A stretch of DNA of 64,000 nt from an uncultured delta proteobacterium (GTDB lineage Bacteria; Desulfobacterota; BSN033; UBA1163). The translations under genes were made by a program, and so were the position numbers. Shown in pieces: positions 36,279-54,260 of the stretch (position 1 is the first letter of the stretch; each line of letters opens with the position of its first letter). The stretch lies in NCBI GenBank assembly GCA_963708295.1, contig CAVPSJ010000004.1:192001-256000 (forward strand), written 5' to 3'. The notes beneath the pieces were generated by a model. That model saw nothing but the letters and a program-made list of their open reading frames with translations. It made no database searches and was not told where the DNA came from.

Positions 36279-37577
36279 TTACGTATGACTATTCCCTTCG
36301 CTAAACGGTTTGAACCATAAAGAAATATTGGACCCACCGTTGGAGGCGCTATTAAGGATAGCTGAACGTATCTCCATTTTCTTCGGCTGCCCCAGGACTA
36401 CGTTCAAATCGCATCGGGGGTCGAGATGCTCTGTTCCAATAGTGGGAGGAATCATTCCGTGATAAAGACTCAAGGCCATCCCACAGGCCCTGCTGCCTCC
36501 CGAACCGTCGAATTCCCCGAGCATCGATTTGAGGCTGCCGACCGAAATCTCTTTTGCCCTTTGTCCAAAAACTTTTTTGATTGCAAGGGCCTCTCCTTCA
36601 TCCAGATCAGGAGTGGAGTTAGCGGCTGCTGAGATGTAATCGACTGTCTGGAGTTCATTGGCTGCTAAAGTCATGCTCTTTGCAATCGAATCTCCCTCGA
36701 TGTCATATCGAAGAAGTCCGCCCGTGCTCCCCGAAAGCCCGGCGCCAGCCATCTCGGCGTAAATTCTTGCGCCTCTCTTCTCTGCATGCTCCAATGTCTC
36801 CAGGACAAGGATCCCGCTTCCTTCGCCAAGGACAATACCGTTCCGATTCTGATCAAAAGGCCTCATCCCCTCGACACCTTTTCCTCTTCCCGGGGATAGC
36901 GCCCCGAGCATCGAATAGACATGATAGAGGGGCTCACTCAACTCGTCGCCACCCCCTGCAAAGATGACGTCTGCCCTTCCCTCTTTCAACAAATGATAGG
37001 CAAAAGTCATGGCCATTTCTGTGGAGGATTCTTTGTGGGAGAAGGTGATATTGACTCCCTTAATTCCGTACTCGATGGCACAGTGGCTCGTGATGGCGTT
37101 GGGCACGGCTGTCTGGAATAGCAGGGGGGCAGCCCCAAGAGGCCCATCTTTTAAAAGGGAACGAAAGAACTGGTCCACGGTATCCGAACTCCCGAGACCT
37201 GTTCCGATAGAAATCCCTATTCGGCCGGAGTCCTCTTCCTTTAGGTCGAGGCCTGAATCATCTATCGCTAGCCGAACGGACGAAACAACGACTTTGCCAA
37301 TCCGATCCATCCTTCTAAGATTGGCGGGTTTGATAAAAGCTTTGAAATCAATCTCAGGGAGTTGGGCGCCTAATCGAGAACGGTAGGAACTCACATCAAA
37401 CCTCTGGATCGGCTTGATTCCGGAGACGCCCCGAAGACAGTTCTCCCAAAACGTTTCCTTCCCGACGCCGATAGACGAAACGATACCCAAGCCGGTAATG
37501 ACAACACGATGATCGTTCGGCGAGTCCGGAGTTCGGAGCTCGGGGTTCGGAGTTTTTTCAAAAGTCTTATTGTCCAC
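36279..37577 (-). CDS. Catalytically inactive ketosynthase (chain-length-factor-like)
   Basis: KS fold, but SHKESS at the Cys site, SAAANST and KSMLGE at the His sites; start approximate. Confidence 0.8.
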   Translation of the reverse strand: MDNKTFEKTPNPELRTPDSPNDHRVVITGLGIVSSIGVGKETFWENCLRGVSGIKPIQRFDVSSYRSRLGAQLPEIDFKAFIKPANLRRMDRIGKVVVSSVRLAIDDSGLDLKEEDSGRIGISIGTGLGSSDTVDQFFRSLLKDGPLGAAPLLFQTAVPNAITSHCAIEYGIKGVNITFSHKESSTEMAMTFAYHLLKEGRADVIFAGGGDELSEPLYHVYSMLGALSPGRGKGVEGMRPFDQNRNGIVLGEGSGILVLETLEHAEKRGARIYAEMAGAGLSGSTGGLLRYDIEGDSIAKSMTLAANELQTVDYISAAANSTPDLDEGEALAIKKVFGQRAKEISVGSLKSMLGEFDGSGGSRACGMALSLYHGMIPPTIGTEHLDPRCDLNVVLGQPKKMEIRSAILNSASNGGSNISLWFKPFSEGNSHT

Positions 37578-37632
37578 TTCTATCTTCCTATTATTAAAGG
37601 GCCCGTAATTGAATAGACATCTGATGAGTCCC

Positions 37633-37722
37633 ACCCCCGCCCTTTCCCTCCCCCTGAAGGGGAGGGAAATCGTTACGTTCCTCCCCCTTCAAGGGGAAGG
37701 TTAGGAAGGGGATGGGGATTTG
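37633..37722. repeat. Pair of C/G-rich REP-like hairpins
   Basis: ccctccccctgaaggggaggg and cctcccccttcaaggggaagg. Confidence 0.6.
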
Positions 37723-37783
37723 CCGGAGTACTATAGTCATATCTTCCCAATTACGTCCTTAGTAAATGGTCACTCCGAACTCA

Positions 37784-39004
37784 TTACTCCGAACTAAACT
37801 TCCCAAACACCAGGCACACATTGTTCCCGCCGAAGGCAAAAGAATTTGAGAGGGCAATTCGAACATCCTTTCTGATGGATTGATTGGGTGTATAATTCAG
37901 ATCGCAAAGGGGATCGGGAACTTCATAGTGAATCGTAGGGGGAATGATCCCCGTCTCCAGAGTCATCACGGTAGCTGCGGCCTCGATGCCCCCGGCAGAG
38001 CCGAGACAATGTCCCACCATCGATTTGATCCCGCTGATCGGGATGGCTTTCGCCCTTTCTGCGAAAACTCTTTTGACCCCCCGTGTCTCGGCAATGTCAT
38101 TGAAGGGCGTTGCCGTCCCGTGTGCGTTGATGGTATCGACCTCTTCCGAAGAAACTCCGGCATGGTTCAAAGCGATGCGGATCACCCTCTCCACGCCCTC
38201 TCCATTGGGCTCCGGCGCGGTGAGATGGTAGGCATCCGCACAGATTCCATATCCCAGAAATTCCGCATGAACCGGGACGCCCCTCTTGAGAGCGTGCTCC
38301 AGGTCCTCGATGATCAGGATGCCTGCTCCTTCACCGATGACCAAACCCTGTCTTCTCTTGTCGAAGGGTTTACAATTTTCAGGATCCATCAGCTTCAGAC
38401 TGCTGAATCCGCTATAAGAAACTTCACAAAGAGAATCACTTCCGCCCGTCACCATCACATCGGCCAGGCCCATTTGAATCATTTCGTAGGCGACACCGAT
38501 GGAGGCGGAACTCGAGGAACAGACGGTCGCGGTGGTGGTCCGGGGTCCCTTGAGTCCCGACTCAATGGCGATGTGGTCTGTTGTGGTAGCGAGGGAATAA
38601 GAAATCAGAAGCGAAGGAGAGGATTTCTTCGTCCCCTGATAATAGTCCCTGAAATATTTCTCTACAGAGAGAATGCCGCCGGAACCTGCTCCCAATACAA
38701 CCCCTATCCTTTCCTTGTCATGCGGATGCTGGTCAAGACGGGCGGATCTCCAGGCTTCTCTGAAGGCAATCAAGCCGAACTGGTCGCATCGGGAGAGGCG
38801 TCGAATCTCTTTTTTCGAAAAATGGGCCTCCGTGTCCAAATGGGAAACCTCTGCGGCGATCTTTGTCCGGTAGGCAGCGGGATCAAAGACCGTAATCTCC
38901 TTTGTCCCATCTTTTCCCTCAATCAGGGAGTTCCAGAACTCAGGGAGGCTGTTTCCCACTGCGCTGACGACGCCCAAGCCTGTGATCACAACCCTCTTCT
39001 TCAT
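37784..39004 (-). CDS. fabF: Beta-ketoacyl-ACP synthase II-like
   Basis: TVCSSS, NAHGTAT, KSMVGH, NSFAFGG. Confidence 0.88.
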   Translation of the reverse strand: MKKRVVITGLGVVSAVGNSLPEFWNSLIEGKDGTKEITVFDPAAYRTKIAAEVSHLDTEAHFSKKEIRRLSRCDQFGLIAFREAWRSARLDQHPHDKERIGVVLGAGSGGILSVEKYFRDYYQGTKKSSPSLLISYSLATTTDHIAIESGLKGPRTTTATVCSSSSASIGVAYEMIQMGLADVMVTGGSDSLCEVSYSGFSSLKLMDPENCKPFDKRRQGLVIGEGAGILIIEDLEHALKRGVPVHAEFLGYGICADAYHLTAPEPNGEGVERVIRIALNHAGVSSEEVDTINAHGTATPFNDIAETRGVKRVFAERAKAIPISGIKSMVGHCLGSAGGIEAAATVMTLETGIIPPTIHYEVPDPLCDLNYTPNQSIRKDVRIALSNSFAFGGNNVCLVFGKFSSE

Positions 39005-39292: not shown

Positions 39293-40147
39293 TCACTTCG
39301 CATTACTTTTGAACGCCATTACCGTTTTGCTGACACCCGGGAAAAGAAGTTTTCTTCCGCTCAGGCTGAAAAGTACTTCTGCGAAACCTCCGAAAAGAAG
39401 AGAGGAGGTTCGCTTTCCCAGATTGCCCGGCAGCGTGTACCCTCCAATCGAGTGTTGACACTTTTCGAAACCAATTCTCTCCAAACATTGCTGAATCACC
39501 CTTGGCGAGAAATCGGAGAGATGGGCAGGTAGATCGTAAAGGCGATTCTTGATCCCAAAAAACTGGAGAAGGTTCTTGATCGGCGTGGTATGAGGATACC
39601 TCAACAGGAGGAGTCCTCCAGGCTTTAAAATTCGACAGCATTCTCTGAGAAATGCCATCGGATGAGAAAGGTGTTCGATGACATAGAACGCTGTGACCGC
39701 ATCGAAATCGTTATCCGGAAGACCTGCTCTTTCCAGCGGACCTGGAAAGATGGTCAGCCCCAAAACACCTCTTGCATAGTCCATCGCTTTTTGAGAAATC
39801 TCTACTCCCGCGGCCTCCCATCCTTTCTTCTTCATCTCGACCGGGAAAAAACCAAAGCCTGTTCCCACATCCAGGAGCCTTCCGTTTCTTCTATACTGAT
39901 GAACCAGATCGGCTGCCCGACGGAAGACAGGCTTCATCATTTTCTTCCATGATTCAATCGATGATTCTCCTTCCGGGAGATACTGCTGATAGAAATGATG
40001 AAGAGATTCCGCCGTGGGACGAGGATTGAGAAAGATGAATTGACAGGAGGGGCACCGGACCATCTGGAAAGATCCTTCAAGGTGAAGAGGGTTTCCTTTT
40101 GACCCCTTACAACTGGGGCAGTCGACTTCCTCCATTTCAAAATCCAT
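39293..40147 (-). CDS. Class I SAM methyltransferase with N-terminal Zn ribbon
   Basis: CPSC..CPSC, LLDVGTGFG, VIEHL, LKPGG. Confidence 0.88.
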   Translation of the reverse strand: MDFEMEEVDCPSCKGSKGNPLHLEGSFQMVRCPSCQFIFLNPRPTAESLHHFYQQYLPEGESSIESWKKMMKPVFRRAADLVHQYRRNGRLLDVGTGFGFFPVEMKKKGWEAAGVEISQKAMDYARGVLGLTIFPGPLERAGLPDNDFDAVTAFYVIEHLSHPMAFLRECCRILKPGGLLLLRYPHTTPIKNLLQFFGIKNRLYDLPAHLSDFSPRVIQQCLERIGFEKCQHSIGGYTLPGNLGKRTSSLLFGGFAEVLFSLSGRKLLFPGVSKTVMAFKSNAK

Positions 40148-40180
40148 ATTCAACTCTTATACTGACCGCCAAAAGGAAGT

Positions 40181-40335: not shown

Positions 40336-41055
40336 TCACTTTGGTAATCCCACTCCACCTCCTTTTATTAAAGGAGGATTAGGAATTGGCCTCACCGATT
40401 CGATCCACATCTCCACGGTCCGTGTGTAAAGTCTCCAATGCTTCAATCTCGATTGTTCTAGGAAGTCCCGACATTCCTTGAAGGTATAGGAAGATTGAAT
40501 CGATTCTATAAACCCTTTCCTCGCTTTAGGATGCTTTCCAAAAAAGGCTTTCCAGAGAAGATTGAAAATCCCAATGAACACAAAAGAGGCATCCCGATGA
40601 AAATCAACTATAACAAACGCTCCCCCTTCCTTCAAGGATCGGGCGACCTCGTTGAAGAAGTCCACAGGACGTTCTAAATGGTGGAGAGTGGTAATGCAGA
40701 GAACAAGGTCGAGAGAATGATCCTCAACGGGAAGAGAGTAGGCCGAGCCTACCTCAAACTCGATTTTGTCGGCCAATCCCTCTTCCTTCGCGTTTCTCCT
40801 GGCAATTTCGACCATCACCGGAGAGAGGTCAATCCCTTTAAATCGAATTTCTGGAAGGGCCTTTGATAAAAAAATGGGGAAGGTTCCCGGACCCGTTCCC
40901 ACATCAATGGCCCTTCCCTTCTCGATCCCCTTGGCCAACACTCGTTTGAGAACCCTCTGGCAAGGGAACCTCCCATATCGTTTGGCCATGCGGTTGTAAT
41001 ATTCCGCCAGCTCCTGATCCTCAATAATTTCAGGCTCTCTAACTCGCTCTTTCAT
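40336..41055 (-). CDS. Class I SAM methyltransferase
   Basis: IDVGTGPG, GIDLSPVM, TLHH. Confidence 0.88.
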   Translation of the reverse strand: MKERVREPEIIEDQELAEYYNRMAKRYGRFPCQRVLKRVLAKGIEKGRAIDVGTGPGTFPIFLSKALPEIRFKGIDLSPVMVEIARRNAKEEGLADKIEFEVGSAYSLPVEDHSLDLVLCITTLHHLERPVDFFNEVARSLKEGGAFVIVDFHRDASFVFIGIFNLLWKAFFGKHPKARKGFIESIQSSYTFKECRDFLEQSRLKHWRLYTRTVEMWIESVRPIPNPPLIKGGGVGLPK

Positions 41056-41156
41056 ACGTATTCCGGGGAAAATAGGTCGGGGTAATTCACTCTCCTGCCT
41101 GAGGTACACGTATCTTGGCAGTCGTGGAGCTCGGAGAATTCAATCTTTCTCAGCAC

Positions 41157-41597
41157 TCACGACGTTGAATTCGGTCCTTTCGCTAAAACAAGCGTTCCCT
41201 CGGCCACTGTTTCTTCTCGGACTCTGGCCAGAACCTTCACCTTGGCCAGGTTAGAAAATATGCGTAAGACTTCTGCCTCGATGATCAGTTGATCCCCGGG
41301 AATCACTCTTTTTTTCACTCGAAATTCTTCGACGCTCGCCAGGGCCGGTATCCCTTTCTCTCCCTTTTCAAAGGACGACCCAAAGGCCAGTCCTCCGGTC
41401 TGCGCCATTGCTTCCAGAATCAAAACCCCCGGGAGGACGGGTTTCTTCGCAAAATGGCCTGAGAAATACGGCTCATCCATGCTGACATTCTTCAGGGCAA
41501 TCGCCTTTTTTCCTTTTTCGATGTCAAGGATTCGATCGATCATCCGAAAAGGAAAGACGTGGGGCAAGCTTCTTAAGATTTCGTCAAAATCCATCAT
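41157..41597 (-). CDS. fabZ: 3-hydroxyacyl-ACP dehydratase
   Basis: LPH.FPF..ID, EPYFSGHF..PVLPGVLILEAMAQ. Confidence 0.92.
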   Translation of the reverse strand: MMDFDEILRSLPHVFPFRMIDRILDIEKGKKAIALKNVSMDEPYFSGHFAKKPVLPGVLILEAMAQTGGLAFGSSFEKGEKGIPALASVEEFRVKKRVIPGDQLIIEAEVLRIFSNLAKVKVLARVREETVAEGTLVLAKGPNSTS

Positions 41598-41654
41598 TCC
41601 AATCCAACGGATCAGGAGTGAACGGGTACTACGGTGCCAATTCAGGGATAATCA

Positions 41655-41850
41655 ACCCCGCCGATAGGCGGCGCTTTTAAAGCCTAAATTCTTAAACCCG
41701 AAAACGGGATCCCGAATCAAGTTCGGGATGACAGAGAAACCGGAACCGAACCGCTATGTCATGAACCTTGGACTGATGAAGATCAGGCTTGTTTCAGCAT
41801 CTGGTTTGCCTTTTTTCTGCCTTCTGCAGACGCACCTTTCAACCCCGTCT
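41655..41850. mobile_element. Composite palindromic element, copy 2
   Basis: Colinear with 6051-6250: cctaaattct, gatcccgaa.caagttcgggatgaca, gaaccgaaccg, cttgtttcagcatctg, gcagacgcacctttca.ccccgtc. Confidence 0.65.
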
Positions 41851-41857
41851 CTGCCTA

Positions 41858-43292
41858 CTATATTTGCGGGGGAGAGTCGAGATTCGGTTGCTTCCAGGGC
41901 CTTTTCGTTGCATTCTCCCAAACATATCGGAGGATGAGCCGGTAAGCCATTCGTTTGAAGGGATTTGGGTTGAAGAAACCCCCCAGGAGGATCCTCGGCT
42001 GGGTATAATATTTTTTCAGATACGCCTGGTGAAGACGCTGAACCTCCCCTGCGGATAAGAATTGTGTATCCACCACAGGGTGCATGAAATCATATTTACC
42101 TAAATCCCTCTCTCGAATCCTCCCCAGTCGTTCTGCCTCTTCAAAGTATCTTGTTCCGGGAAGGGGAGTCGTCATGGTGAGTACCAAAAAGTCGCTCTGA
42201 GCCTTAACAAATCGGAAGACCTCCTGGATCGACTCCTGGGAGTCATTCCAGTCTCCGAACATGATGTTGGCCATCACCATGATCTTATTTTTTCTGAGAA
42301 TATCGATGGCCTTCTGGGCCATCTCTCTCGATTGTTGTTTTTCATACCGGCTGAGCACATCGGGCTGGATGCTCTCGATTCCCAACATCACTTCATAGAG
42401 CCCCAGGCGCCTCATTTCGGGGATGAGATCTTCATCCCTGATAATATCCTTGGTTCGGGATTGAAACCAGAAGTGGATGCGAAGACCTGACCTCCCCAAC
42501 TCATCAAGAAACTCCTCCACCCGTTTCCGGCTCCAGTTGAAGGTATTCTCGTTGAAAATAAAGAGGGTCTTGCCGTATTGATGGTTCAGAAAGGAAATCT
42601 CCTCCACGATTTTCTTCCCGCTCCGTCCCCTCCAGACCGCCTCCCAGAATCTGGACTCAGAACAGTAAGCGCATCGATCTCCACAGCCGCGGCTGGTCGA
42701 AAGACCAAACGCCCTTCTCCCCATTCCATGCCAGTAGTAGGCTTCTTTCTCCATATCGATGAGATGGTAGGCCGGGAGAGGAAGGGAGTCCAGATTGGGA
42801 ATGAGAGGATGTCTCTCCCTTAGAATGACTTTCCCGTTGTCCGAATAGGCGAGGCTCTTCACCCCTTTCCCTTTTCCGCCTCTGGAGAGGTCATGAAGGA
42901 ATTGAGAGAAGGCGATCTCTCCTTCGCCCAGGATAATATAGTCCAATTCCTTCAGCTCTCTGGAGGATGGTTTCCGCCATCAGGGTGAAGTGGCTTCCCC
43001 CTGCCACGATGATGGCGTTCGGCGAAAGTCTTCGGCTGAGAGTGATCGTCTGAATGGCCTCGGGCGAGAGACAGGTGGCCGAGCAGGTTATGCCAATGAC
43101 ATCGGCCTTGGCCGCTGAAATCGTATTTCCCAGATCTTTCCAAGGGGATGGAAGGACCGTGGCGTCAACGATCTGGACTTCGATGCCTTCTCTTTCCAGA
43201 TAGGCGCCCAATTGGAGAAGACCAAAAGAAGGGGTCCACATTCGAAGACCCGGAAAAAGTTTATGAGGCGGATCGATGAGAAGAACCTTCAT
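41858..43292 (-). CDS. Cobalamin-binding radical SAM protein (frameshift near 42950)
   Basis: MKVLLIDPP..GLLQLGAYL..GGSHF in one frame; GEGE, SRGCGDRCAYC, TPLPGT in the next. Confidence 0.88.
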
Positions 43293-43355
43293 CCGTTTAC
43301 GTTTTGAAATATGAATTTTGTGGCCGACAAAAACCTTGGCCGTCGACAACTCGAG

Positions 43356-43569
43356 ATCCGAATATCGGGAGAAGCGTCCGTCTCGGACCAATCCGAAACA
43401 AGGATATTAAACCCTAAACTCGAAACCCAAAACCCTAAACAAACTCCAATGTCGAAACCACAAAACTCAAACCCTATAATCTTTTGAGTTTTAGATTTTG
43501 GGTTTGTTTTAGGTTTAGAATTTAGTGTTTAGAGATTAATCCATTTCGGATTTCGTGCTTCGAATTTAA
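43356..43569. repeat. Nested 7-mer inverted-repeat element
   Basis: About 46-bp left end and tttcgtgcttcgaatttaa right end shared with 62686-62839; inner aaaccctaaac.../...gtttagaatttag array. Confidence 0.7.
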
Positions 43570-43626
43570 CGGTCTTCCCCTTCTTAAAAACGTTTCCCCC
43601 CATTGATTAGTTCTATCGGGACGAAA

Positions 43627-44049: not shown

Positions 44050-44064
44050 CTCACATCCTCTCGT

Positions 44065-45242: not shown

Positions 45243-45339
45243 TCTTCTCCTCTTCTGTTCAATGAGTACTTTGAAGTTCGTATTTCGGCTTTCGGAGCCT
45301 GAGAATCACTAGGCCAACTTGACTCCCTCGGAACTGTTT

Positions 45340-46251: not shown

Positions 46252-46252
46252 A

Positions 46253-47624
46253 TTAACCCCCGAAGTAGTCTCTCAGGAAGCCGAGAAGCGTCCGGAAACC
46301 CAAACGATGTTTCTTGACGTGATGCCAGATGTCGTGAATCCCTTTTTTCGACCGGGTATAATAGAGGAGGTGCGCCTTGAGCAGAAGCCACTCCATTCGA
46401 ATGAATGAAAGATGGTCGTGTTTAAACACCAAGTGCTGCATATCGAAAAAGGACCAGGGCGACCTCCATTTAAAAATCCGACCCTTCACCTGCTCGTAGA
46501 TGGCCGTGCCCGGGTAAGGGGTGAGGATGGCGAACTGGGCCACGTTCGTATCGAGCTTTTTTGCAAAACGGATGGTGTCATGAATCGTCTTGACGGTATC
46601 GTGGAGCCCTCCCAGGATATACGAGGCGTGGATCTCCAGACCATTCCGTTTCAGCATCTCTACCGTCTGAACGGTTTCCTCCACATGGAACCCCTTCCTC
46701 AACTCCTCGAGGGTTCTCGGGCTGGAGGATTCCACTCCGATAAAGACCGATTTCGCTCCCGCCCTGACCATTTCTTTAACCATTTCTTCGTTTCGAAGCA
46801 GGAGGTCGATCCTGGATAAGCACCACCACCAGAGGTCGAGTTTCTTTTCAACGATCCCATGGCAAATTTCAATCACCCTCCTCGAATTGAGGTTAAAGGT
46901 GTCATCCACAAAGGCCACGGCATTAAAATGATACCGGTGATGAATCTCTTCGATTTCTTTCAAGACAGAAGCCACGCTCCTCATCCTGATTCTTGTCCCC
47001 CAGAAGTGGGAAGAAGCGCAGAAGGCACATTGATAGGGGCATCCACGGCTCGTGATCAAAGGAGTGATGTCACGGTCTCCGATTCTTGGTCCTTTGATAA
47101 TCATCGATAGGGATCAGATGCCTGGCGGGGAGGGGAAGACTGTCGAGATCCTCAATGAAAGGCCGCGGAGGAGTTCGCACCAGTTGACCCTTGGATAAGA
47201 AACTGATCCCCTGGATGGAATCGAATGTGCGATCATCTTTTTGTAAAGCGCCCGCCAATTCTGAAAAGGTAACCTCTCCTTCTCCCCGGACAATGAAATC
47301 AACTCTTTTGGTCGAAAGGATTTCTTCATCCACATAGCCAGGATGGGGCCCGCCCATCACCACCGTGCACCCATTCGCCTTCGCTCTCTTTGCTAATCGA
47401 AGGGCTTGACGGTGACGGGTCGTATCTGTGGAGATGCCGACGATATCATATTTCTTAAAATCGATTTCCTCCTTCTTCCGTCGAACAGCCAGGTCCCTGA
47501 CCACAACTTGATGGCCTCCCTTCTCGGCATACGCAGCAACATAGAGAAGGCCGAGAGGTGGAAAGAGAACTCCTGTTGCTTTCAGGGTCCCCGTAGGCGC
47601 AGGATTGATTAAAAGGATGTTCAT
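46253..47624 (-). CDS. Cobalamin-binding radical SAM protein (frameshift near 47100)
   Basis: PPLGLLYVAA, GGPHP, GEGE; then SRGCPYQCAFC, TPYPGT. Confidence 0.88.
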
Positions 47625-47643
47625 GAATTTAGTCAAAAGTCCC

Positions 47644-47742
47644 GTAGTCTTGTAGCCTTGTAGTTTTCTTGACCAGACGACTAAGTGACTGCCTAACTAT
47701 TCGACCTTTTCTTCGCTATGCTCTATGCGCCATGCACTATGC
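47644..47742. repeat. Short-period repeat array (8-mers and 7-mers)
   Basis: gtagtctt gtagcctt gtag facing gacca/gacta; gctatgc tctatgc gccatgc actatgc. Confidence 0.65.
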
Positions 47743-48694
47743 CATTTATTGTTTGGCGGTAGCGTTCGCAGAGATCCCCCCAGCAGGCGACCACTTGATG
47801 GTCCACCAGAAGCTGGATCACCTCACACTGGTTTCCGCACTCGCTGCAATCAAACCCTTTGGTCGAACAGGACTTCCGGAGTAGATCAAACCCTCTAAAC
47901 TGGGTCTTGGAGATTTTGGCCTTCTTTACCAATTTTGCAGCCCCGATGGCGCCCATCACATCAAAATGTTCCGGAATGACCAGGGACACTTCCAATTCCC
48001 TTTCGAGGGCTCTTTGAATGCCCCGGTTCGCCGCGACGCCCCCCTGGAAAACGATGGGAGAAAGGATTTCTTTCCCCCGGCAGACATTATTCAAATAATT
48101 CTTCACCAGGGAGTCACAGAGGCCCGCCACAATATCCTCAACGGAGTGTCCAATCTGTTGCTTATGGATCATATCCGTCTCGGCAAAGACCGTGCATCGG
48201 CCTGCGATCCGGACCGGGTGATCGGCCTTGAGCGCAAGATCCCCGAACGCCTCGATGGAGATCCCGAGCCTGGCCGCTTGCTGATCCAAGAAAGATCCTG
48301 TGCCTGCGGCACAGACCGTGTTCATGGCAAAGTCGACGACGACGCCATTTCTCAGGACGATGACCTTGGAATCCTGGCCACCGATCTCGATGATGGTCTT
48401 CGCCTCGGGCAAAAAATCGATCACGGAGATGGCGTGGGCAGTAATCTCATTTTTGATAAGATCGGCGCCTACCAGATATGCAGCCAGATGCCTGGCACTG
48501 CCGGTCGTGGCCACTCCATTGATCGCAATGGTTTCCCCCAGCTGAGTCAGGATCTCCTTGATCCCTTGCTGGATGGCTTCAATAGGCCGGCCAATGTTCC
48601 GGATATAGGACTTGGCTAAGACTTGATCGCTTTCGCTCAACACCACCAGCTTGGTGGTGATGGAACCGACATCAATGCCTAAGTAATGACCCAT
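47723..48694 (-). CDS. ASKHA-type acyl-CoA dehydratase activase (HgdC/BadFG-like)
   Basis: GIDVGSITTK, EIGGQDSK, CAAGTGSF, RCTVFAE, C-terminal CxxCxxxC..C. Confidence 0.92.
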   Translation of the reverse strand: MGHYLGIDVGSITTKLVVLSESDQVLAKSYIRNIGRPIEAIQQGIKEILTQLGETIAINGVATTGSARHLAAYLVGADLIKNEITAHAISVIDFLPEAKTIIEIGGQDSKVIVLRNGVVVDFAMNTVCAAGTGSFLDQQAARLGISIEAFGDLALKADHPVRIAGRCTVFAETDMIHKQQIGHSVEDIVAGLCDSLVKNYLNNVCRGKEILSPIVFQGGVAANRGIQRALERELEVSLVIPEHFDVMGAIGAAKLVKKAKISKTQFRGFDLLRKSCSTKGFDCSECGNQCEVIQLLVDHQVVACWGDLCERYRQTINGIVHGA

Positions 48695-48735: not shown

Positions 48736-48784
48736 GTTCAGGCTAAGGCTGAGGTTAAGAAGTGCTAAACCTTAACCTCAACCT
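48736..48784. repeat. Inverted 6-mer array
   Basis: ggttcaggctaaggctgaggttaag facing ccttaacctcaacct. Confidence 0.6.
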
Positions 48785-49832
48785 AAGTATTTTCTGTTTT
48801 TCTCTGTTCCACCACGTCCCGAAAGGCTTCCAGCCGGGTGGTCAACCCTTCCCTTCCCGTATGTTCATCAAAGGAGAGGATGAGAAAGGGGATGGAAGAC
48901 CCTCCCCGGACTTTCAACCTCCTTTTGATGAATTCTTGTAGGAGAGCGTCAATCCCGCATTTAAACGAGGTGAGGAAGACCACCCCATCCACGCCACCGG
49001 ATAGAAAGTGGAAAAGGGATCCTACAATTTCTCTTCCCGAGGACCAGTAAATCTCTTTGGAAAGGCCAGAGACCTCTCGATCGATCTCCTTTTCAGAAAG
49101 GAGATCAGAGGTCATGATCTCCATCTCCAAACTTTTCGCCAGGGCGAGAAGGTCCTTGTTGATATCGATGTCGAAGAGATTGTACGGATGGCCGATGAAA
49201 GCGATGCGCAAGGAACCTCCAATTCCTTTTTCTCCTCTTTTTGCTGCTTCTCCCTCCCCTTCATCCCCTCCCACCCAGGGAGGGGAAATTTTGGATGGAG
49301 GCGGAGTGGGAACATTCATCTCAAAGAGTTGCCCTGTCGGAAGTCGGTTGATTCGATTCCCCCAGTCCTTTTGAAATTCGGAGAAAGACTCCTCGGCCTC
49401 TCGAAAGGCCCTCCTGCTTTCTTGTCTCGAGGCGCCCAGCTTTTCGGCGATGTTCACAAAAGACTGAAGCAGGGGAATGCCCCCTTTTCGAGGATCGACG
49501 GTCTCGTCGATAATGGAAACTTTTCCTTCCGTGGCAAGCCGCACAATGTCCGGAGCCGCACGAAACTTGGGACACATGATGTAAGTTCGATGAATACTGA
49601 CCAACCGAGGGATGAAAAGATGGTCTACTTTGTCCTTCAATTGAACGGCATGTGTGACCAGAAGTTTCATCGGAAGGCAACTGTCTTCGAAATAGATGAT
49701 CTTCTCCTTTTGTCCCACCCCGCTGGAAACCATCACCTTCCAACCTAGCCTTTCAAAGAAGGAGCGCCAGAGAGGAAAAAAACGGTAAAACATCAGCGCT
49801 CTGGGAATGCCTATGCGGCCCTTCTCTTCCAT
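48783..49832 (-). CDS. DUF2229 / 2-hydroxyacyl-CoA dehydratase-related subunit
   Basis: IGIPRAL, DSCLPMK, CPK, GHPYN, SFKCGID, DEHTG..TRLEAF. Confidence 0.85.
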   Translation of the reverse strand: MEEKGRIGIPRALMFYRFFPLWRSFFERLGWKVMVSSGVGQKEKIIYFEDSCLPMKLLVTHAVQLKDKVDHLFIPRLVSIHRTYIMCPKFRAAPDIVRLATEGKVSIIDETVDPRKGGIPLLQSFVNIAEKLGASRQESRRAFREAEESFSEFQKDWGNRINRLPTGQLFEMNVPTPPPSKISPPWVGGDEGEGEAAKRGEKGIGGSLRIAFIGHPYNLFDIDINKDLLALAKSLEMEIMTSDLLSEKEIDREVSGLSKEIYWSSGREIVGSLFHFLSGGVDGVVFLTSFKCGIDALLQEFIKRRLKVRGGSSIPFLILSFDEHTGREGLTTRLEAFRDVVEQRKTENT

Positions 49833-50911
49833 TCCAACATCTCCACAAAGGCCTCAAGAAGTGTCTGGATGCGGCCTTCGATTTCCTGCTCATCTAAAAT
49901 GATCGTCAGGATGGGAATGTCCCGGTCCTTTCCCACCTTCGTCAAAATTCCAGAGGCGGTGGTCTCCGGCATGCAGGCGAAAGGCATGAGATGGACGATC
50001 CCATCGTATCCTTCTTCCGATCTCAAGATGGCCTCACCGATGGAGATATTACATTCTGCCCCCACGTCGTAACCCAGATAAGCCTTTGACGCTTCAAAGA
50101 AACGAATTCGTTCCGAAGCCCGATCCGCCTTATTCTTCCGAAGACTCCTCAGGATATGAGTGGAGAACCAGGAGGTCCGCGTCACTTCCACGCCCAATTC
50201 TCCCAGTTTCTGTTCCACTCCTCGATTGATATGGGGGTCCATCACGGTATAGAGTTCGCCCACAACGGCGACTTTAAACGGGCTGCGGGAAGGATCTCGT
50301 TCCATATCCTGAAGAAGGGTTTTTCCTTCTTGAGTGGCTCCTTGCAGGGCGCTCGTCGTTTTAGCCTCATCCACCCACGAGAGGGCCTTCTTCAATCGCT
50401 TCTGAGTCTCTCCTTTCTTGATCTCCATGGGTCTGACCTTCATGGCCAATTGTTCTAATGCCTCGCAGGCCATCATCTTCTTCCACCCTATCCAGAGCCC
50501 GTAAGGGAAGAGGAGAACATTCTTCGCACTCAACTCTTTTCTCAGCTCTTTCGTCTCCTCGTGATTCTTCCACATCGCCTTCCAGCCGAGTCGAGGCGGG
50601 ATGGTCAGCCATCGATAATGAAGACCCATATCTTCAAGGATCACTTTCTGAACAAGGTCATAGAGTCCCAGGCGGCAAGGAGGGCCGCTGCCGACCATCA
50701 CAATGGTATCCGCTCCCCTCTGAAGGGCTTCGATAAAATTCCCCAGGATGATTTTGAAAGGAAGACAGATAGACTCATTTGAGTGGAGGGCACCGAGGGT
50801 CAGGGTTTTTCGGCTGGTTTCAGGAGGAAGGATATAGGGAATACCGGCGGTCTCTGCGATGGCCTTGCAGAAGATGTGCATCGAGCCCAAACGGGGAAAG
50901 GTTACCTTCAT
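49811..50911 (-). CDS. 2-hydroxyacyl-CoA dehydratase/reductase-related subunit
   Basis: ESICLPFK, GPPCRLG.Y, VGELY, PFACMPE, DEQ..LEAF. Confidence 0.85.
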   Translation of the reverse strand: MKVTFPRLGSMHIFCKAIAETAGIPYILPPETSRKTLTLGALHSNESICLPFKIILGNFIEALQRGADTIVMVGSGPPCRLGLYDLVQKVILEDMGLHYRWLTIPPRLGWKAMWKNHEETKELRKELSAKNVLLFPYGLWIGWKKMMACEALEQLAMKVRPMEIKKGETQKRLKKALSWVDEAKTTSALQGATQEGKTLLQDMERDPSRSPFKVAVVGELYTVMDPHINRGVEQKLGELGVEVTRTSWFSTHILRSLRKNKADRASERIRFFEASKAYLGYDVGAECNISIGEAILRSEEGYDGIVHLMPFACMPETTASGILTKVGKDRDIPILTIILDEQEIEGRIQTLLEAFVEMLEWKRRAA

Positions 50912-52320
50912 CCATGTCTACCCACTACCTTTTTCCCTTTTGAAAAAAGCTGAGGGTTTTGGTTTTCGACTTTCTCCTTCCAGGCAGGTTCTGCGATCTC
51001 TCCATAAGCCTGGGAATACTCATCGAGGGACTGCGCAAAATCCGTAAAGAGCTGCTCTGCCCCTTCATGGGTAAAGTACTTCGCATGTTGAAGCGCAAAC
51101 TCCCTCCCCTGCTGAGGGTGGTCGATCAGAGGACAGGACCGAAATAAGTTCTCCGAGAAAGGCTGATGGGATCGCATTTCCCTGAAGAGAGGAGAATTGA
51201 GAGCCTCCATGAGAGACTTCTCTTTGATGTTGTCAGAGGCAAAATGGCAGAAGATACAGGGCTCCACATCTCCTCGGGCATTGACATGAAAGTATTTTCT
51301 CCCCGCAGCAATGCATCCCTGTGTGAGACAGCCATCATTCCAGAAGTCGACAAAGAGCATGGGTTTGGTGGCCCGAAAATAGGCGAGTCGCTCCCTCGCC
51401 CGGCTCCTCTGTTCAGGAGTGACCATGAGGGAGAGATCGGGGTTTCTTCCGATGGGGACGTAATGGAAGTTCCAGTGAAGAATGCATCCCTTCTCTACCA
51501 GAAAATCGACAAAGGCATCGCTCGTCAGGACATCATGATTTCGGGAAGTTTGCGTCGTGGAGACAGCGAAAAAGATCCCGGCTTTTCGGAGCCCGTCCAT
51601 CACCTTCACGATTCGATCGAACTGACCCTTGCCCCTCCTCCCGTCGGTTTCTTCTCTGAGCCCTTCGAGGCTGATCGCGGGAGCGACATTTCCCAGGGCT
51701 ACGAATCGATCGATCATCTTCTCGTCGATCAATGTGGCATTGGTATAGATTTGGAACATCATGTCATCATGCTTTTGGAAGAGGTCGAAAAGATCCTGCC
51801 TCAAGAAGGGTTCCCCACCCGTCATCATGACCAGATGGATGCCCATCTCTTTACACTCTCCCATTAACCGATCCAGCACCTCATAAGGAAGATCTTCTTG
51901 GGAATAGACCGCTGAATAACAACCATAGCAATTCAGATTGCACCGCATCGTCGGGCTGATCAACATGGCGTCCGGCGGATAGAATCCCCTCTCTGCCTCA
52001 AAGGCTTTTCTCCGGTTGGTGCCCACCAGAAGTTGATTGAGGATGAAGTTGGAGATGAGCCTTTTCCGATGATGGGGATGTGTCTCGCTGAGCACCCTTC
52101 GCGCAATCGCCAGACCAAGATGATTGCTCTGGAAGAGAGTGCGAATCCATCGAATCTTCTCCCGATAGGATTCCTTTTTAGGAATCTTCTCTGCAAGATA
52201 AGTGAGACGAATCAAATTTTCCGTGGAAGCGCTGGCCAGCAGAGAAAGAGCGTTCGTTGTAAACTTCTCTATGGAATACCGCTTAGCCCGTTGGTAAAAA
52301 TCCATCTTTTCCCTCACCAC
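50908..52320 (-). CDS. Radical SAM protein with C-terminal auxiliary-cluster Cys motifs
   Basis: CNLNCYGC, TGGEP, DFWNDG..GCIAAGR.Y.H....GDVEPC, RSCP. Confidence 0.9.
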   Translation of the reverse strand: MVREKMDFYQRAKRYSIEKFTTNALSLLASASTENLIRLTYLAEKIPKKESYREKIRWIRTLFQSNHLGLAIARRVLSETHPHHRKRLISNFILNQLLVGTNRRKAFEAERGFYPPDAMLISPTMRCNLNCYGCYSAVYSQEDLPYEVLDRLMGECKEMGIHLVMMTGGEPFLRQDLFDLFQKHDDMMFQIYTNATLIDEKMIDRFVALGNVAPAISLEGLREETDGRRGKGQFDRIVKVMDGLRKAGIFFAVSTTQTSRNHDVLTSDAFVDFLVEKGCILHWNFHYVPIGRNPDLSLMVTPEQRSRARERLAYFRATKPMLFVDFWNDGCLTQGCIAAGRKYFHVNARGDVEPCIFCHFASDNIKEKSLMEALNSPLFREMRSHQPFSENLFRSCPLIDHPQQGREFALQHAKYFTHEGAEQLFTDFAQSLDEYSQAYGEIAEPAWKEKVENQNPQLFSKGKKVVGRHG

Positions 52321-52985
52321 AAAAGACTTCGAAGAAAGAGTTTACAAACCATCCAGGTATCGGTCACCGGCCTGAAATGGCTGGAAGAAGTTCCATCGAC
52401 TTTTTGCGTATTGATAGGAACAGATAACACACGGAATCCTTTTTTGCAAGCTTTAATCAGGAGTTCCAACTCTGTCTCGAATCGAGACGTGGTGAGGTCA
52501 ATCTTCTCCAATACCTCTCTCCGAATGAGCCGAAAACCGGACTGACTATCCGTAATATCCGAATGGCAAAGCCGTGCAACTGCCTTTACGCCCAAGCGAT
52601 TCCAGAAGCGACGGAGGAAGGTCATCTGCCCGAATTTTGCGGCCCGGGAGGCGATGAGGATATCGGGCTTGACATTTTGAAACACCTTAAGCAGGAAGGG
52701 AATGTCGGCAGGATCATGTTGACCGTCGGCATCCAGAGTGATGACCACCTGATAGTCCTTCCGGAGGATAGATTCAAACCCCGTCCGAAGGGCGGCCCCC
52801 TTTCCAAGGTTAAGGGGATGTTTCAAGAGTTGAACTCCATGTTCTGAAGCCACCCTCCCCGTCTCATCCGAGGACCCGTCATCGACGACAAGGGTATCGA
52901 CCCTGAGAGGTTCAACCTTATTCAGGACGGAACCAAGGGTCCATTGGGCATTATAAGCAGGAATGAGGACACAGATTTTATCCAA
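52314..52985 (-). CDS. Glycosyltransferase family 2
   Basis: IPAYN, VDDGSSD, DADGQH, DSQSGFR, SHFRP. Confidence 0.9.
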   Translation of the reverse strand: MDKICVLIPAYNAQWTLGSVLNKVEPLRVDTLVVDDGSSDETGRVASEHGVQLLKHPLNLGKGAALRTGFESILRKDYQVVITLDADGQHDPADIPFLLKVFQNVKPDILIASRAAKFGQMTFLRRFWNRLGVKAVARLCHSDITDSQSGFRLIRREVLEKIDLTTSRFETELELLIKACKKGFRVLSVPINTQKVDGTSSSHFRPVTDTWMVCKLFLRSLLW

Positions 52986-53062
52986 GATGGGCCCCTACCG
53001 TCATTCCGGTTTCTTTATGCACGCTGCCTGTCTCAGCAGTGGAACAGACCTAAAAATATAAG

Positions 53063-53099
53063 TTTCAAATGTCAAATTTCAAATGTCAAATGAATGTCA
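53063..53099. repeat. 7-mer tandem array
   Basis: tttcaaa tgtcaaa tttcaaa tgtcaaa. Confidence 0.6.
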
Positions 53100-54260
53100 T
53101 CTTTCCAGAAAACGTTTCATCTCCGGGTCATAGAGAAAAGTAAAAAAGGTTGCTACCGATCCAAAGAATGGAAGCGGATCATCTTTTGAAATGACGTCAT
53201 AGCAGGTGTTGGGGTCAAAGAAATCGAAGAAGGAGGGATGAAGATGAAAACGATCAGGGTTTTTGAAAAAATGAAGAAGATCGCCCAAAAGAAGCCACCG
53301 AAAGCGTTTTCCCGCCGCATAGTGAAGAACGGGCTCGAAACTTTCCCTCTTGGCCATCTTCAAAATCAGATACGGGAAATCGACCCCGGAGGCAATGGCC
53401 AGTTGCAAGGACCCCCAAAAACGAGGGTTGACCTCCATCAGTTTTGGAATCCCATCCCTGGGGTCGAGTTTGAATTCGGCCATGCCCACACCGACCCAAC
53501 TTAAAGACTTAAAGAGGGAAAGGCCCATTTCCATCAGCTGAGAATGTTCAACCCCTTCCCCAAGTGTACTGGGACCTCCCTGAACGGGATACATCCTCAA
53601 CTTCCTATGAACAAAGGCAGCCTTCACTTTTGAAGTCTCATCGTAAAGGGCAGAGAAACCGTAAATCCCCTCTCCATCCGGAATCCATTCCTGGACAATT
53701 GGAAAAGGAAATCGCTCGTGGACCCTTCGATAAGACGAAATAAGATCCTCCTTTTTTTTCACGTAGACAATACCGAGCGATCCTGAACTCACCCGGGGCT
53801 TGATGACTGCTGGGATAGGGATAGAATCGAGGGGGAGGCTGGGGGATGGAGGCATATAAAATGTTTTCGGCGCAGGAATCCCTGCTTTCTCCGCAAACTG
53901 CATCAGATTTCCTTTATCCCGAACAAATTCAATTTTCTTCAAATCAGGGCTGAGAAGGTAAGTATACTGGGATATCTCCGGGTGATGTTTCGCCAGTAGA
54001 AGCAGCGTCTCCTCCTCCATAGGAAAGACGCAATCGTAATGGTTCTTCTTAATCTCTGTGAGAAAAAATTCAATAAATTGATTTGGGGTTTGTCGCGGGG
54101 AAGGGTAGACGAGACGCCCGGCACAATACTTTGAGAAGAAGGAGGTATTGAGGCGTGTTCGCTCTCCTACGGTAACCTGGACTCCTTTCCGACCCAGAGA
54201 TCGAACGACGGCCAATGTTTTTCTGAAGTGCCCATCGGTGACCAGAACGCGCATTTTCAT
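53097..54260 (-). CDS. ATP-grasp carboxylate-amine ligase-like protein
   Basis: DK, VIKPR, VQEWIP, EFK, LMEVNPRFWGS. Confidence 0.85.
   Translation of the reverse strand: MKMRVLVTDGHFRKTLAVVRSLGRKGVQVTVGERTRLNTSFFSKYCAGRLVYPSPRQTPNQFIEFFLTEIKKNHYDCVFPMEEETLLLLAKHHPEISQYTYLLSPDLKKIEFVRDKGNLMQFAEKAGIPAPKTFYMPPSPSLPLDSIPIPAVIKPRVSSGSLGIVYVKKKEDLISSYRRVHERFPFPIVQEWIPDGEGIYGFSALYDETSKVKAAFVHRKLRMYPVQGGPSTLGEGVEHSQLMEMGLSLFKSLSWVGVGMAEFKLDPRDGIPKLMEVNPRFWGSLQLAIASGVDFPYLILKMAKRESFEPVLHYAAGKRFRWLLLGDLLHFFKNPDRFHLHPSFFDFFDPNTCYDVISKDDPLPFFGSVATFFTFLYDPEMKRFLER

Follow-up and report, generated by a model that had tools for sequence, protein, structure and literature searches.

A split homologue of the PlsA/Ger-type reductase in a candidate lipid-building gene set of uncultured Syntrophia-type Thermodesulfobacteriota

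The gene array considered here occupies positions 36279 to 54260, on the minus strand, of a 64,000-nucleotide stretch of DNA (the window) from contig CAVPSJ010000004.1 (hereafter C4) of an uncultured delta proteobacterium from a wetland. Together with three genes downstream of it, the array appears to represent the greater part of a lipid-building set, conserved among uncultured Syntrophia-type Thermodesulfobacteriota but uncharacterised, which is made up of modules A, B and C, a reading to which a probability of about 0.5 is assigned. Module A (operon A) comprises an acyl carrier protein (ACP), a FabD-like loader, FabG, a thioesterase, an LpxL-type O-acyltransferase, up to four cobalamin (B12) radical S-adenosylmethionine (SAM) enzymes (B12-rSAMs), a radical SAM enzyme with a SPASM domain (rSAM/SPASM), a family 2 glycosyltransferase (GT2), an ATP-grasp ligase and a three-gene reductase. 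Module B (operon B) comprises an active ketosynthase (KS), inactive KS partners, FabZ, two SAM methyltransferases (MT1 and MT2) and an acyl-CoA dehydrogenase, and module C a phytoene-desaturase-like (PDH-like) flavoenzyme, a lipoprotein and a cobalamin radical SAM enzyme. Judged by homology, the three-gene reductase (genes 04 to 06) is a split and reordered homologue of the PlsA/Ger-type ether-lipid reductase. The most likely product, as suggested by the gene content, would be an ACP-derived, radical-SAM-tailored acyl chain that is O-linked, probably ether-linked, in a membrane or envelope lipid. That the set serves a dedicated lipid pathway is held with higher confidence than the full mechanism set out below, which is put at about 0.5. 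An earlier reading of the letters and open reading frames (ORFs) of this DNA, hereafter the sequence-only reading, had stated that the product cannot be named from sequence, and the outcome here is the same.

The genes of the reductase and the family models that they match are as follows.

49811–50911, minus strand: gene 04, DUF2229/HGD-D subunit a, 366 amino acids (PF09989, 49.8 bits, cut-off 29.4)
48783–49832, minus strand: gene 05, DUF2229/HGD-D subunit b, 349 amino acids (PF09989, 126.1 bits, cut-off 29.4)
47723–48694, minus strand: gene 06, ATP-dependent activase of the BcrAD/BadFG, HgdC type, 323 amino acids (PF01869, 165.2 bits; TIGR00241, 201.6 bits, cut-off 125.4)

Their affiliation emerges from a comparison within the genome, which encodes at C4:805683-809873 a fused protein of 1396 amino acids with the canonical PlsA/Ger-type architecture (BcrAD-BcrAD-DUF2229). 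Gene 05 aligns end to end with residues 672–983 of this Ger-like protein (E 7e-25, 24% identity) and gene 04, likewise end to end, with residues 1001–1382 (E 2e-25, 24% identity); in other words, gene 05 matches the middle module and gene 04 the C-terminal module of a fused PlsA/Ger-type protein, while gene 06 is 47–49% identical to each of its two N-terminal activase domains. Because genes 04–06 are thus colinear with a fused protein of Ger architecture, they are best regarded as its split homologue, and because the fused protein is also present in the genome, the operon genes constitute a second, dedicated copy. ORFs of about 1400 amino acids with weak matches occur in nearly all of 41 related genomes. 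To our knowledge, the sole tested function of DUF2229-type enzymes is bacterial ether lipid synthesis. According to the available text of PMC13159169, Ger has the architecture BBDHDDH, is related to PlsA and turns sn-1 ester bonds into ether bonds. The sequence-only reading had pointed to an activase/reductase module as the unusual part of the array; the module is indeed present, and its colinear homology allows the broader label to be replaced by that of a split PlsA/Ger homologue.

Conservation and predicted structures agree with a two-subunit Fe–S protein. In alignments reaching down to about 30–35% identity, Cys49, Cys79 and Cys313 of gene 04 are invariant in 50 sequences and Cys52, Cys87 and Cys292 of gene 05 in 41 sequences, and these residues presumably bind an Fe–S cluster. 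The AlphaFold model of gene 04 (mean predicted local distance difference test, pLDDT, 87.5) finds among its top 18 listed Foldseek rows only double-cubane cluster protein (DCCP), 2-hydroxyisocaproyl-CoA dehydratase and two class-I benzoyl-CoA reductases, BzdNO and MbdON, with probability 1.00 and TM scores of 0.45–0.58. A heterodimer of genes 04 and 05 is predicted with a score of 0.87 (runs 0.88, 0.87 and 0.87), against 0.00 for the best of three controls; at least 98% of the contacts are common to the runs, the pLDDT of the partner is at least 84, and the predicted interface includes the loops that carry the invariant cysteines. The mark used for such predictions is reached by 58/80 solved complexes and 2/110 mismatched pairs, counts that are only roughly valid here, the prediction having been made from separately built alignments. 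As like complexes have been solved, the high score could stem from that likeness, so that binding is not proven by it.

From these parts a mechanism can be proposed. The KS/inactive-KS pair of operon B would build an acyl chain on the ACP of operon A, with the transacylase and ketoreductase of A and the dehydratase of B, and the methyltransferases, the desaturase-like enzyme and the B12 radical SAM enzymes would then modify unactivated carbons. The LpxL-type enzyme would move the chain from the ACP to a hydroxyl of an acceptor lipid, on the head group of which the GT2 and the ATP-grasp ligase would work. The activase, using ATP, would push a low-potential electron into the [4Fe-4S] heterodimer of genes 04/05. 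In a reaction like that of Ger and PlsA, the heterodimer would then reduce this ester, or else an ester of glycerol, to an ether of the alkyl or alkenyl type. For a radical methylation, cyclisation or cross-linking of the chain and for a glycosylated head group, all put forward in the sequence-only reading, the case stays one of inference. A more specific version, which is speculative and quite unlikely as it stands, would have modules A, B and C together form the pathway by which uncultured Syntrophia make one of the orphan biomarker lipids of anoxic wetlands and peat, a non-isoprenoid ether lipid with chains methyl-branched, cyclised or cross-linked by four to six B12-rSAMs (resembling branched glycerol dialkyl glycerol tetraethers or related to ladderanes) and with the Ger-like trio acting as a new ester reductase on a non-canonical ester (sn-2, acyl-sugar or acyloxyacyl) made by the LpxL-type transferase.

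The same trio could instead act on a thioester. On this account, which is considered unlikely, the DUF2229 pair and its activase would, in the manner of 2-hydroxyacyl-CoA dehydratases or class-I benzoyl-CoA reductases, work on an ACP- or coenzyme A (CoA)-bound thioester and supply the dehydration or enoyl reduction absent from operon A, and no ethers would be made. The folds do match (R)-2-hydroxyisocaproyl-CoA dehydratase, BzdNO and MbdON as well as anything, gene 06 meets the 'acyl-CoA dehydratase activase' model TIGR00241, and operon A in most relatives contains ACP, acyltransferase, FabG and thioesterase genes but no FabZ or enoyl reductase. The homology, however, runs to DUF2229-type fused proteins and is colinear over both modules, while a profile search of the PDB by sequence reaches the dehydratases only at E 0.3–0.7 (best E 0.33), and the supposedly missing FabZ is supplied by operon B, which co-occurs with A. 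Context also bears on the substrate, since the reductase type occurs in a second, paralogous cluster of related MAGs (metagenome-assembled genomes; type 2, loci L072–L080, read in L074:7654-20850), which contains an rSAM/SPASM enzyme, an activase, four DUF2229 subunits and an LpxL-type acyltransferase, followed in order by an SRPBCC protein, a B12-rSAM, an MMPL transporter and a PDH-like enzyme. The core common to operon A and type 2 consists of the SPASM enzyme, the activase, the DUF2229 subunits, the LpxL-type O-acyltransferase and a B12-rSAM. With an O-acyltransferase beside the reductase in both cluster types, and an MMPL exporter and SRPBCC protein added in type 2, this shared core favours a finished lipid ester over a thioester as substrate. 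The type-2 cluster was not found in this genome with the query used.

Two observations concern the wider surroundings of such clusters. The type-2 cluster is preceded by genes for LemA, DUF2207 and HEAT proteins, and in L059 (11112-12380), a locus of the type-3 group described below, the ORF after gene 04 has an HGD-D-like N-terminus fused to a glutamine-synthetase catalytic domain. Distant gene 04 homologues in Fusobacterium (35–37% identity) have no lipid context and are uninformative.

The remaining genes of the array, in the direction of transcription, are listed below with the models that they match.

53097–54260, minus strand: gene 01 (operon A), ATP-grasp ligase, 387 amino acids (PF15632, 37.4 bits, cut-off 29.1; PF02655, 25.5 bits, cut-off 23.2)
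52314–52985, minus strand: gene 02, GT2, polyprenyl-phosphate-sugar-synthase-like, 223 amino acids (PF00535, 86.6 bits)
50908–52320, minus strand: gene 03, radical SAM/SPASM enzyme, 470 amino acids (PF04055, 75.3 bits; PF13186, 36 bits)
46253–47636, minus strand: gene 07, B12-rSAM1, in two ORFs, 47070–47636 and 46253–47104 (PF02310, 77.4 bits; PF04055, 80.7 bits)
45340–46251, minus strand: gene 08, LpxL/PatA-type acyltransferase (lipid A biosynthesis family), 303 amino acids (PF03279, 118.7 bits)
44970–45242, minus strand: gene 09, dedicated ACP with DSI serine motif, 90 amino acids (PF00550, 44.8 bits; NF006617, 72.7 bits, cut-off 70)
44065–44973, minus strand: gene 10, FabD-like acyltransferase, 302 amino acids (PF00698, 59.2 bits; TIGR00128, 159.8 bits, under its cut-off of 260.9)
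43627–44049, minus strand: gene 11, hot-dog (4HBT) thioesterase of YbgC/FadM type, 140 amino acids (PF13279, 57.3 bits; TIGR00051, 71.8 bits, cut-off 68.7)
41858–43391, minus strand: gene 12, B12-rSAM2, in two ORFs, 42891–43391 and 41858–42946 (PF02310, 64.4 bits; PF04055, 52.4 bits)
41598–41857, no strand: spacer of 260 bases with the synteny breakpoint between the 5′ part of operon A and the 3′ part of operon B
41157–41597, minus strand: FabZ (operon B), 3-hydroxyacyl-ACP dehydratase, 146 amino acids (NF000582, 148.8 bits, cut-off 113)
40336–41109, minus strand: MT1 (operon B), class-I SAM methyltransferase, 257 amino acids (PF08241, 80.9 bits)
39293–40153, minus strand: MT2 (operon B marker), class-I SAM methyltransferase, 286 amino acids (PF13489, 73.9 bits)
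37784–39004, minus strand: KS, FabF-type, 406 amino acids (NF005589, 436 bits, cut-off 387)
36279–37634, minus strand: KS2, inactive KS homologue, chain-length-factor-like, up to 451 amino acids (PF00109, 125.6 bits)

The sequence-only reading had described 17 co-oriented and often overlapping genes. Every kind of gene that it named is borne out on the minus strand by ORFs, Pfam and NCBIfam, and overlaps of 4–22 bases are found for the pairs 02/03, 03/04, 04/05 and 09/10; in the part from FabZ to KS2 the genes are separated by spacers of 47–288 bases. Its term 'inactive KS' is also right, because KS2 has Glu/Ala/Glu at the Cys-His-His triad positions of the alignment; KS keeps the full triad. 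The true start of KS2 is probably near residue 38–40, judging from relatives that align from residues 20–40 on.

Several proteins deserve comment. No NCBIfam equivalog scores above cut-off for gene 01, and for gene 02 the nearest NCBIfam models, PpgS and AglJ, both remain far under cut-off; a hydrophobic segment was not found in the gene 02 sequence. Gene 03 has an all-helical N-terminal domain of about 110 amino acids, with CxxxCxxC at residues 127–134, and its AF2 model (pLDDT 88.4) has its best fold matches in SkfB, SuiB and anSME. A structure of Tes is deposited in the PDB. An identification of gene 03 as a Tes-type synthase was considered and is not supported, there being no such entry in nine PDB sequence hits or in the fold rows listed to rank 50; for Mss, the comparison covered these PDB hits and no Mss sequences. 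The H-x4-E motif of gene 08 reads PHLGNWE, EHSMG replaces GHSxG in gene 10, and gene 09 is the sole ACP across modules A, B and C. The nearest model for gene 12 is BchE, its two ORF halves covering profile positions 2–116 and 116–452. No NCBIfam model reaches cut-off for MT1, which is 89–90% identical to the operon B copies of two related genomes, G010 and G003. Rfam and tRNA scans of the window gave no matches, a cobalamin riboswitch being absent, and contigs from an RNA library (run X20) fall on seven pieces of 42372–48000, with DNA carry-over possible.

How far the array is conserved was judged from a profile scan with gene 04, one genome per species, which gave at least 483 confirmed relatives, nearly all of them metagenome-assembled genomes (MAGs) labelled Thermodesulfobacteriota, Syntrophaceae, Syntrophobacterales or 'Deltaproteobacteria'; 79 loci were kept. 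Gene order in operon A was scored, wherever a pair allowed it, in those 51 loci whose gene 04 is at least 60% identical. In the relatives the order is TatC, RadC, ATP-grasp, GT2, rSAM/SPASM, DUF2229a, DUF2229b, activase, (B12-rSAM1) and LpxL-type acyltransferase, then ACP, FabD-like, thioesterase, B12-rSAM2, B12-rSAM3, B12-rSAM4 and FabG. Every scorable adjacent pair is kept across the 51 loci, the optional B12-rSAM1 excepted: 01–02 in 25/25 loci, 03–04 in 48/48, 04–05 in 39/39, 05–06 in 36/36, 08–09 in 28/28, 09–10 in 27/27, 10–11 in 27/27, 11–12 in 25/25, 12–B12-rSAM3 in 23/23, B12-rSAM3–B12-rSAM4 in 20/20 and B12-rSAM4–FabG in 5/5. Since all scorable pairs are kept, the order is far from chance. 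B12-rSAM1 directly follows the activase in 20 of 33 loci and the acyltransferase does so in 11; in 12 of the 51 loci there is no query gene after gene 04, some being contig ends and others loci designated type 3. RadC (54339–55028) and TatC (55170–56036) lie directly upstream of the ATP-grasp gene in the window, on the same strand, as they also do in 18/18 relatives reaching there.

The 3′ third of the array has a different history. FabZ, MT1, MT2 and KS2 of the window have no match in any of the 79 operon-A-type loci, and the run FabZ-MT-MT-KS-KS2 follows B12-rSAM2 in none (0/23) of the related loci extending beyond B12-rSAM2. In G010 and G003 these genes belong to a contiguous operon B, consisting of acyl-CoA dehydrogenase, a triad-less KS-like gene, a small exporter, FabZ, MT1, MT2, KS and KS2, which lies on a separate contig from operon A in G010 and 110 kb from it in G003. 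In the present genome the window carries the 5′ part of A followed by the 3′ part of B, and another contig, C17, carries the complementary halves, namely acyl-CoA dehydrogenase, KS-like and small exporter, then B12-rSAM3, B12-rSAM4 and FabG. The exchange is reciprocal, with orientation kept on both contigs. The 17-gene array is therefore specific to this assembly, with the 3′ parts of A and B exchanged. For the sequence-only reading, which took the 17 genes as one operon, this means that the refuting sign it had named, a gene order not shared by relatives, applies to the 3′ third, which in G010 and G003 resides elsewhere, and not to the 5′ two thirds, the order of which is conserved. On C17 a further B12-rSAM (545244–546590, minus strand) stands directly after FabG in divergent orientation, and the same gene follows FabG in G010; it may represent a fifth radical SAM gene of the operon A neighbourhood.

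Such an exchange would result from an inversion between two oppositely oriented operons. It could also be an artefact, i.e. an assembly chimera in which A and B were wrongly joined in the MAG, the two frameshifts described below being polishing errors. The arrangement is absent from the 23 related loci, the genome is binned from 20 contigs and has a contamination of 5.63%, 6/92 orthologous ORFs are split in the assembly, and no listed read contig spans 41623–41858, loose ends being seen at 41623, 41762, 41802 and 41809. Against a chimera, the exchange is reciprocal with orientation kept on C4 and C17, and no repeat common to both junctions (41598–41857 and, on C17, about 540184–540702) able to mislead an assembler was found. 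The loose ends, for their part, are expected either way, because the read runs hold related strains only (word share at most 0.32). An assembly chimera is rather unlikely and a real rearrangement the more likely of the two; the question bears on the array only, not on the biology of A, B and C. As to the exact breakpoints, DNA likeness to G010 and G003 ends at the coding ends flanking 41598–41857, and no alignment was obtained between the junction spacers and those of relatives.

The same assembly shows two breaks in reading frame. Compared with four relatives by DNA alignment, gene 07 has one extra base at 47088/47089 and gene 12 one extra base at 42959, both genes being a single frame in G010, G003, G018 and G013. 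At 42959/42962, short-read contigs of related strains (runs X2 and X3) are one base shorter, with gap depths of 12.3/41.1, 28.8/47.3 and 22.1/132.2. Since 6 of 92 G010 ORFs (at least 200 amino acids, with an orthologous stretch at 70% identity or more here) are split across frames in this genome, two breaks among about 19 genes are within expectation, and the extra bases are probably assembly indels. Real decay of a rearranged operon was considered, as only the B12-rSAM genes are split in the first ~55 kb compared, and was set aside in view of the 6/92 ORFs split more widely. One of the six split ORFs lies elsewhere in the window, at about 59810–60891, where a 370-amino-acid G010 ORF spans two adjacent frames, with the break near 60547.

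Module C lies downstream of KS2, outside the range of the sequence-only reading, and consists of three further minus-strand genes between 29556 and 33142.

31643–33142, minus strand: PDH-like flavin amine oxidoreductase, 499 amino acids (PF01593, 93.1 bits)
30872–31486, minus strand: protein of 204 amino acids with a lipoprotein-type N-terminus (N-terminal hydrophobic segment and Cys), for which no Pfam family matched
29556–30941, minus strand: B12-rSAM with DUF4070, 461 amino acids (PF04055, 66.1 bits; PF13282, 29.6 bits; PF02310, 29.4 bits, under its gathering score of 32.1)

The distance between the PDH-like gene and KS2 is 3.1 kb in the window and 4–6 kb in G012 and G010, where the PDH-like gene is likewise downstream, and the two genes abut in G018. 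The B12-rSAM of this module is 48% identical to that of the type-2 cluster and 72% identical to one in locus L076.

Whether A and B act together can be judged from their contents and distribution. Operon A holds the ACP, transacylase, ketoreductase, thioesterase and acyltransferase, and operon B the KS, the inactive KS partners, FabZ, the methyltransferases and the acyl-CoA dehydrogenase; in G010 and G003, the operon-B loci, 15 kb each, have no homologues of the ACP, acyltransferase, ketoreductase, thioesterase and LpxL-type genes. Of the 41 related genomes, 23 carry the A marker (DUF2229b, identity at least 48%) and 25 the B marker, MT2, namely all 23 A carriers plus G026 and G034. A third marker, the family TIGR04072 ('rSAM_ladder_B12') above its cut-off, is found in 22, including 20 of the 23 A carriers (G007, G025 and G005 are just under), and 16 genomes have none of the three. 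Inside the family, the genera coded g1, g3, g5, g8, g9 and g11 carry all three markers, and g2, g4, g6, g7 and g10 none. This co-occurrence is suggestive only, because the genomes are kin. The exchange of the 3′ parts, together with the complementary contents, provides a testable hint of one shared pathway.

A number of points weigh against a joint lipid pathway leading to ethers. What is known of it comes from genes, homology and predicted structures. The fused protein is only 24% identical and, being the genome's own homologue and not an assayed Ger or PlsA, likewise uncharacterised; moreover, the HGD-D model (PF06050) scores 28.1 and 23.3 bits on genes 04 and 05, under its gathering score of 28.4, although the fold of gene 04 does resemble HGD-type subunits. 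The type-3 loci (L051–L059, L062 and L078) keep ATP-grasp, GT2, rSAM/SPASM and DUF2229a without gene 05, and the cluster contains no glycerolipid genes of the PlsX/Y/C type. Since A and B are separate loci in the relatives, their coupling relies on complementarity and on co-occurrence among kin, which is not independent, and G026 and G034 combine the B marker and TIGR04072 with no close DUF2229b detected by the query used. Both operon-A B12-rSAM genes of the window are frameshifted in this assembly, and at 47088/47089 no indel is listed in the related-strain read contigs. Finally, scans for promoters and terminators gave 18 promoter-like sites (13.9 in shuffled sequence) and 32 terminator-like sites (26.6), so that neither kind is commoner than in shuffles and the scans are uninformative.

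Products other than an ether lipid are suggested by the likeness of the set to known clusters. The sequence-only reading had proposed a dedicated ACP and a lipid set of the type II fatty acid synthesis kind, mixed with cobalamin radical SAM enzymes and methyltransferases, and had compared it with clusters of anammox bacteria and deltaproteobacteria. The domain calls agree with the first point, and the comparison is apt, such clusters being described in the available text of PMC2649909 and PMC10139942 and a PDH-like gene and a B12-rSAM standing just downstream of the array. In anammox bacteria, the excerpts of bioRxiv 10.64898/2026.05.19.726425 and PMC10139942 list for Cluster I (KustE3603-3608) amxACP, amxFabZ, an active FabF, a triad-less FabF, a PDH homologue and a cobalamin radical SAM enzyme; the former source describes the FabF pair as a KS/chain-length-factor-like heterodimer, which the intact KS and triad-less KS2 of the window resemble, and the cluster as unique to ladderane producers. 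According to the available part of PMC2649909 (Rattray et al. 2009), Desulfotalea, Geobacter and Pelobacter have syntenic clusters that include genes for radical SAM and PDH-like enzymes, methyltransferases and glycosyltransferases, and Desulfotalea psychrophila yielded polyunsaturated hydrocarbons and no ladderanes. Surveys with antiSMASH assign 'ladderane' biosynthetic gene clusters to Desulfobacterota and other phyla, with function described as not known in the accessible text of PMC9902471. A 2026 review of lipid-modifying radical SAM enzymes, in the portion available, treats Tes, Mss, Gms, Grs, Gmm, Cds, HpnH/J/P/R, Jaw5 and unassigned ladderane enzymes.

True ladderane lipids would suit the gene content, as all Cluster I gene kinds are present (ACP, FabZ, KS, inactive KS, PDH-like and B12-rSAM) and the genome has one TIGR04072 member. 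This member is the B12-rSAM4 of operon A, here on C17 (391 bits, cut-off 360); the three B12-rSAMs of the window score about 100 bits or less, all under cut-off, that of module C reaching 71 bits and hence not being a member. The genome, which is very rich in cobalamin radical SAM paralogues, contains 35 stretches matching TIGR04072 at E 0.001 or better, one of them above cut-off, and 14 control genomes have none above cut-off. In PDB sequence searches, however, the FabZ and KS proteins are no closer to special chains than to ordinary FabZ and FabF: FabZ scores 118 bits with ordinary FabZ chains against 96–104 with chains named only 'Beta-hydroxyacyl-(ACP) dehydratase', and the best chain for KS, 9s5h_B, scores 365 bits against 363.5 for Bacillus subtilis FabF. 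The best PDB chain for the ACP is 9ls6. Ladderanes, as far as the available text of PMC2649909 and PMC9902471 goes, come only from anammox Planctomycetota, with none from the similar D. psychrophila clusters, and the link between Cluster I and ladderanes is called unproven in that of PMC10139942, which adds that the anammox proteins failed to express. A true ladderane product is accordingly unlikely, extremely so in our estimate.

Polyunsaturated or otherwise modified hydrocarbons or fatty acids, as proposed for D. psychrophila by Rattray et al., are an improbable alternative in which the PDH-like enzyme would desaturate with the assistance of the radical SAM enzymes, an ether being incidental or absent. 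The PDH-like gene and B12-rSAM next to KS/KS2 would suit it, as does the report, in the accessible part of PMC2649909, that D. psychrophila with similar clusters makes such hydrocarbons. That link was itself a hypothesis, however, the likeness to its genes is one of description, and no role is left for the LpxL-type acyltransferase, the GT2, the ATP-grasp ligase and the Ger-like reductase.

As a further alternative, the set might make a pigment or surfactant of aryl-polyene-like or glycolipid-like type, a secondary metabolite destined for secretion or for the outer membrane, instead of a bulk membrane lipid. Aryl-polyene clusters combine an LpxL-like acyltransferase with an ACP, a KS/chain-length-factor pair, a thioesterase and a GT2. 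The pairing of LpxL-type gene and ACP, the KS and inactive KS, the thioesterase and the GT2 of the window resemble this content; the ACP also meets NF006617, and antiSMASH-type tools label such clusters as secondary-metabolite gene clusters in many phyla (available text of PMC9902471). Module A nevertheless has no AMP-ligase, aromatic-starter gene or exporter, and in 23/41 related genomes the set occupies a single, conserved position on the chromosome, next to TatC and RadC, as would be expected of a core trait of the envelope more than of an accessory metabolite. This alternative is about as improbable as the hydrocarbons, and an envelope or membrane lipid, probably with an ether bond, stays the preferred reading.

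Orphan bacterial ether lipids serve as climate proxies in wetland, peat and sediment settings. A dedicated split copy of the reductase, joined with radical SAM enzymes, an ACP and an O-acyltransferase and conserved in many genomes of uncultured Syntrophia-type bacteria from wetlands, peat and sediments, points to an unrecognised ether-lipid class. The presence of Cluster I gene kinds in a non-anammox lineage argues that these enzymes make something more general than ladderanes, in agreement with Rattray et al. and the antiSMASH surveys. If the ether-lipid reading of A, B and C holds, the set would offer a second, non-anammox system in which to study the roles of KS/inactive-KS, PDH-like and B12-rSAM enzymes. 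The proteins found here are in any case alternative targets for biochemistry where the anammox proteins failed to express.

Elsewhere in the window, on the plus strand at 25620–28925, lie genes for a molybdopterin large subunit (xanthine dehydrogenase/aldehyde oxidase type) and a CO-dehydrogenase-type flavoprotein subunit, which are unrelated to the cluster.

Among known systems, PlsA/PlsR and Ger of Thermotoga maritima and Desulfatibacillum alkenivorans are the closest to the window trio, which shares with them the BcrAD/BadFG activase and DUF2229 parts, an anaerobic host and a lipid gene context. Unlike the single-polypeptide form or the PlsA plus PlsR form, the window has three genes in the order C-terminal module, middle module and activase; its activase has one domain and not the two of the fused Ger-type protein, and the trio sits among an LpxL-type acyltransferase, an ACP and radical SAM enzymes. 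The superfamily of 2-hydroxyacyl-CoA dehydratases (HAD; 3o3m), class-I benzoyl-CoA reductases (BCR; 8s02, 9g87) and DCCP (6eno, 7yyl) resembles the trio in fold, in a separate ASKHA-type activase, in three conserved cysteines per subunit and in the predicted heterodimer. Sequence likeness to it is at noise level (E 0.3–0.7), the N-terminal DUF2229 part is confined to the PlsA/Ger group, and the trio has no CoA-ligase or CoA-transferase genes around it.

With aryl-polyene clusters the window shares an LpxL-type acyltransferase followed by a PRK09184-type ACP, the KS/inactive-KS pair, the hot-dog thioesterase and the GT2; unlike them, its modules have no aryl-starter ligase and contain in addition the reductase and between four and six B12-rSAMs.

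The comparison with anammox Cluster I was made by description of gene content, not by anammox sequences. The descriptions available for Cluster I name no Ger-like reductase, SPASM enzyme or ATP-grasp ligase, all three of which the window has, and among the matches listed the literature gave no cluster of this kind in which a split Ger-like reductase is combined with these two enzymes (SPASM and ATP-grasp) and an LpxL-type transferase. Unlike the contiguous six-gene Cluster I, the genes here are distributed over three modules, A and B being separate loci in relatives, and it is module A, not the module with the KS and PDH-like genes, that contains the ACP and the TIGR04072 enzyme. The inactive KS is upstream of the active KS in anammox bacteria (excerpts of bioRxiv 10.64898/2026.05.19.726425) and downstream of it in the window. 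Against these differences, the window has five of the six Cluster I gene kinds in the order in which the available sources list them (FabZ, then KS, inactive KS, PDH-like and B12-rSAM), with a dedicated ACP in operon A, and the anammox and Desulfotalea loci, in the accessible text of PMC2649909, also contain SAM methyltransferases and a glycosyltransferase. The window set is a known but uncharacterised kind of cluster.

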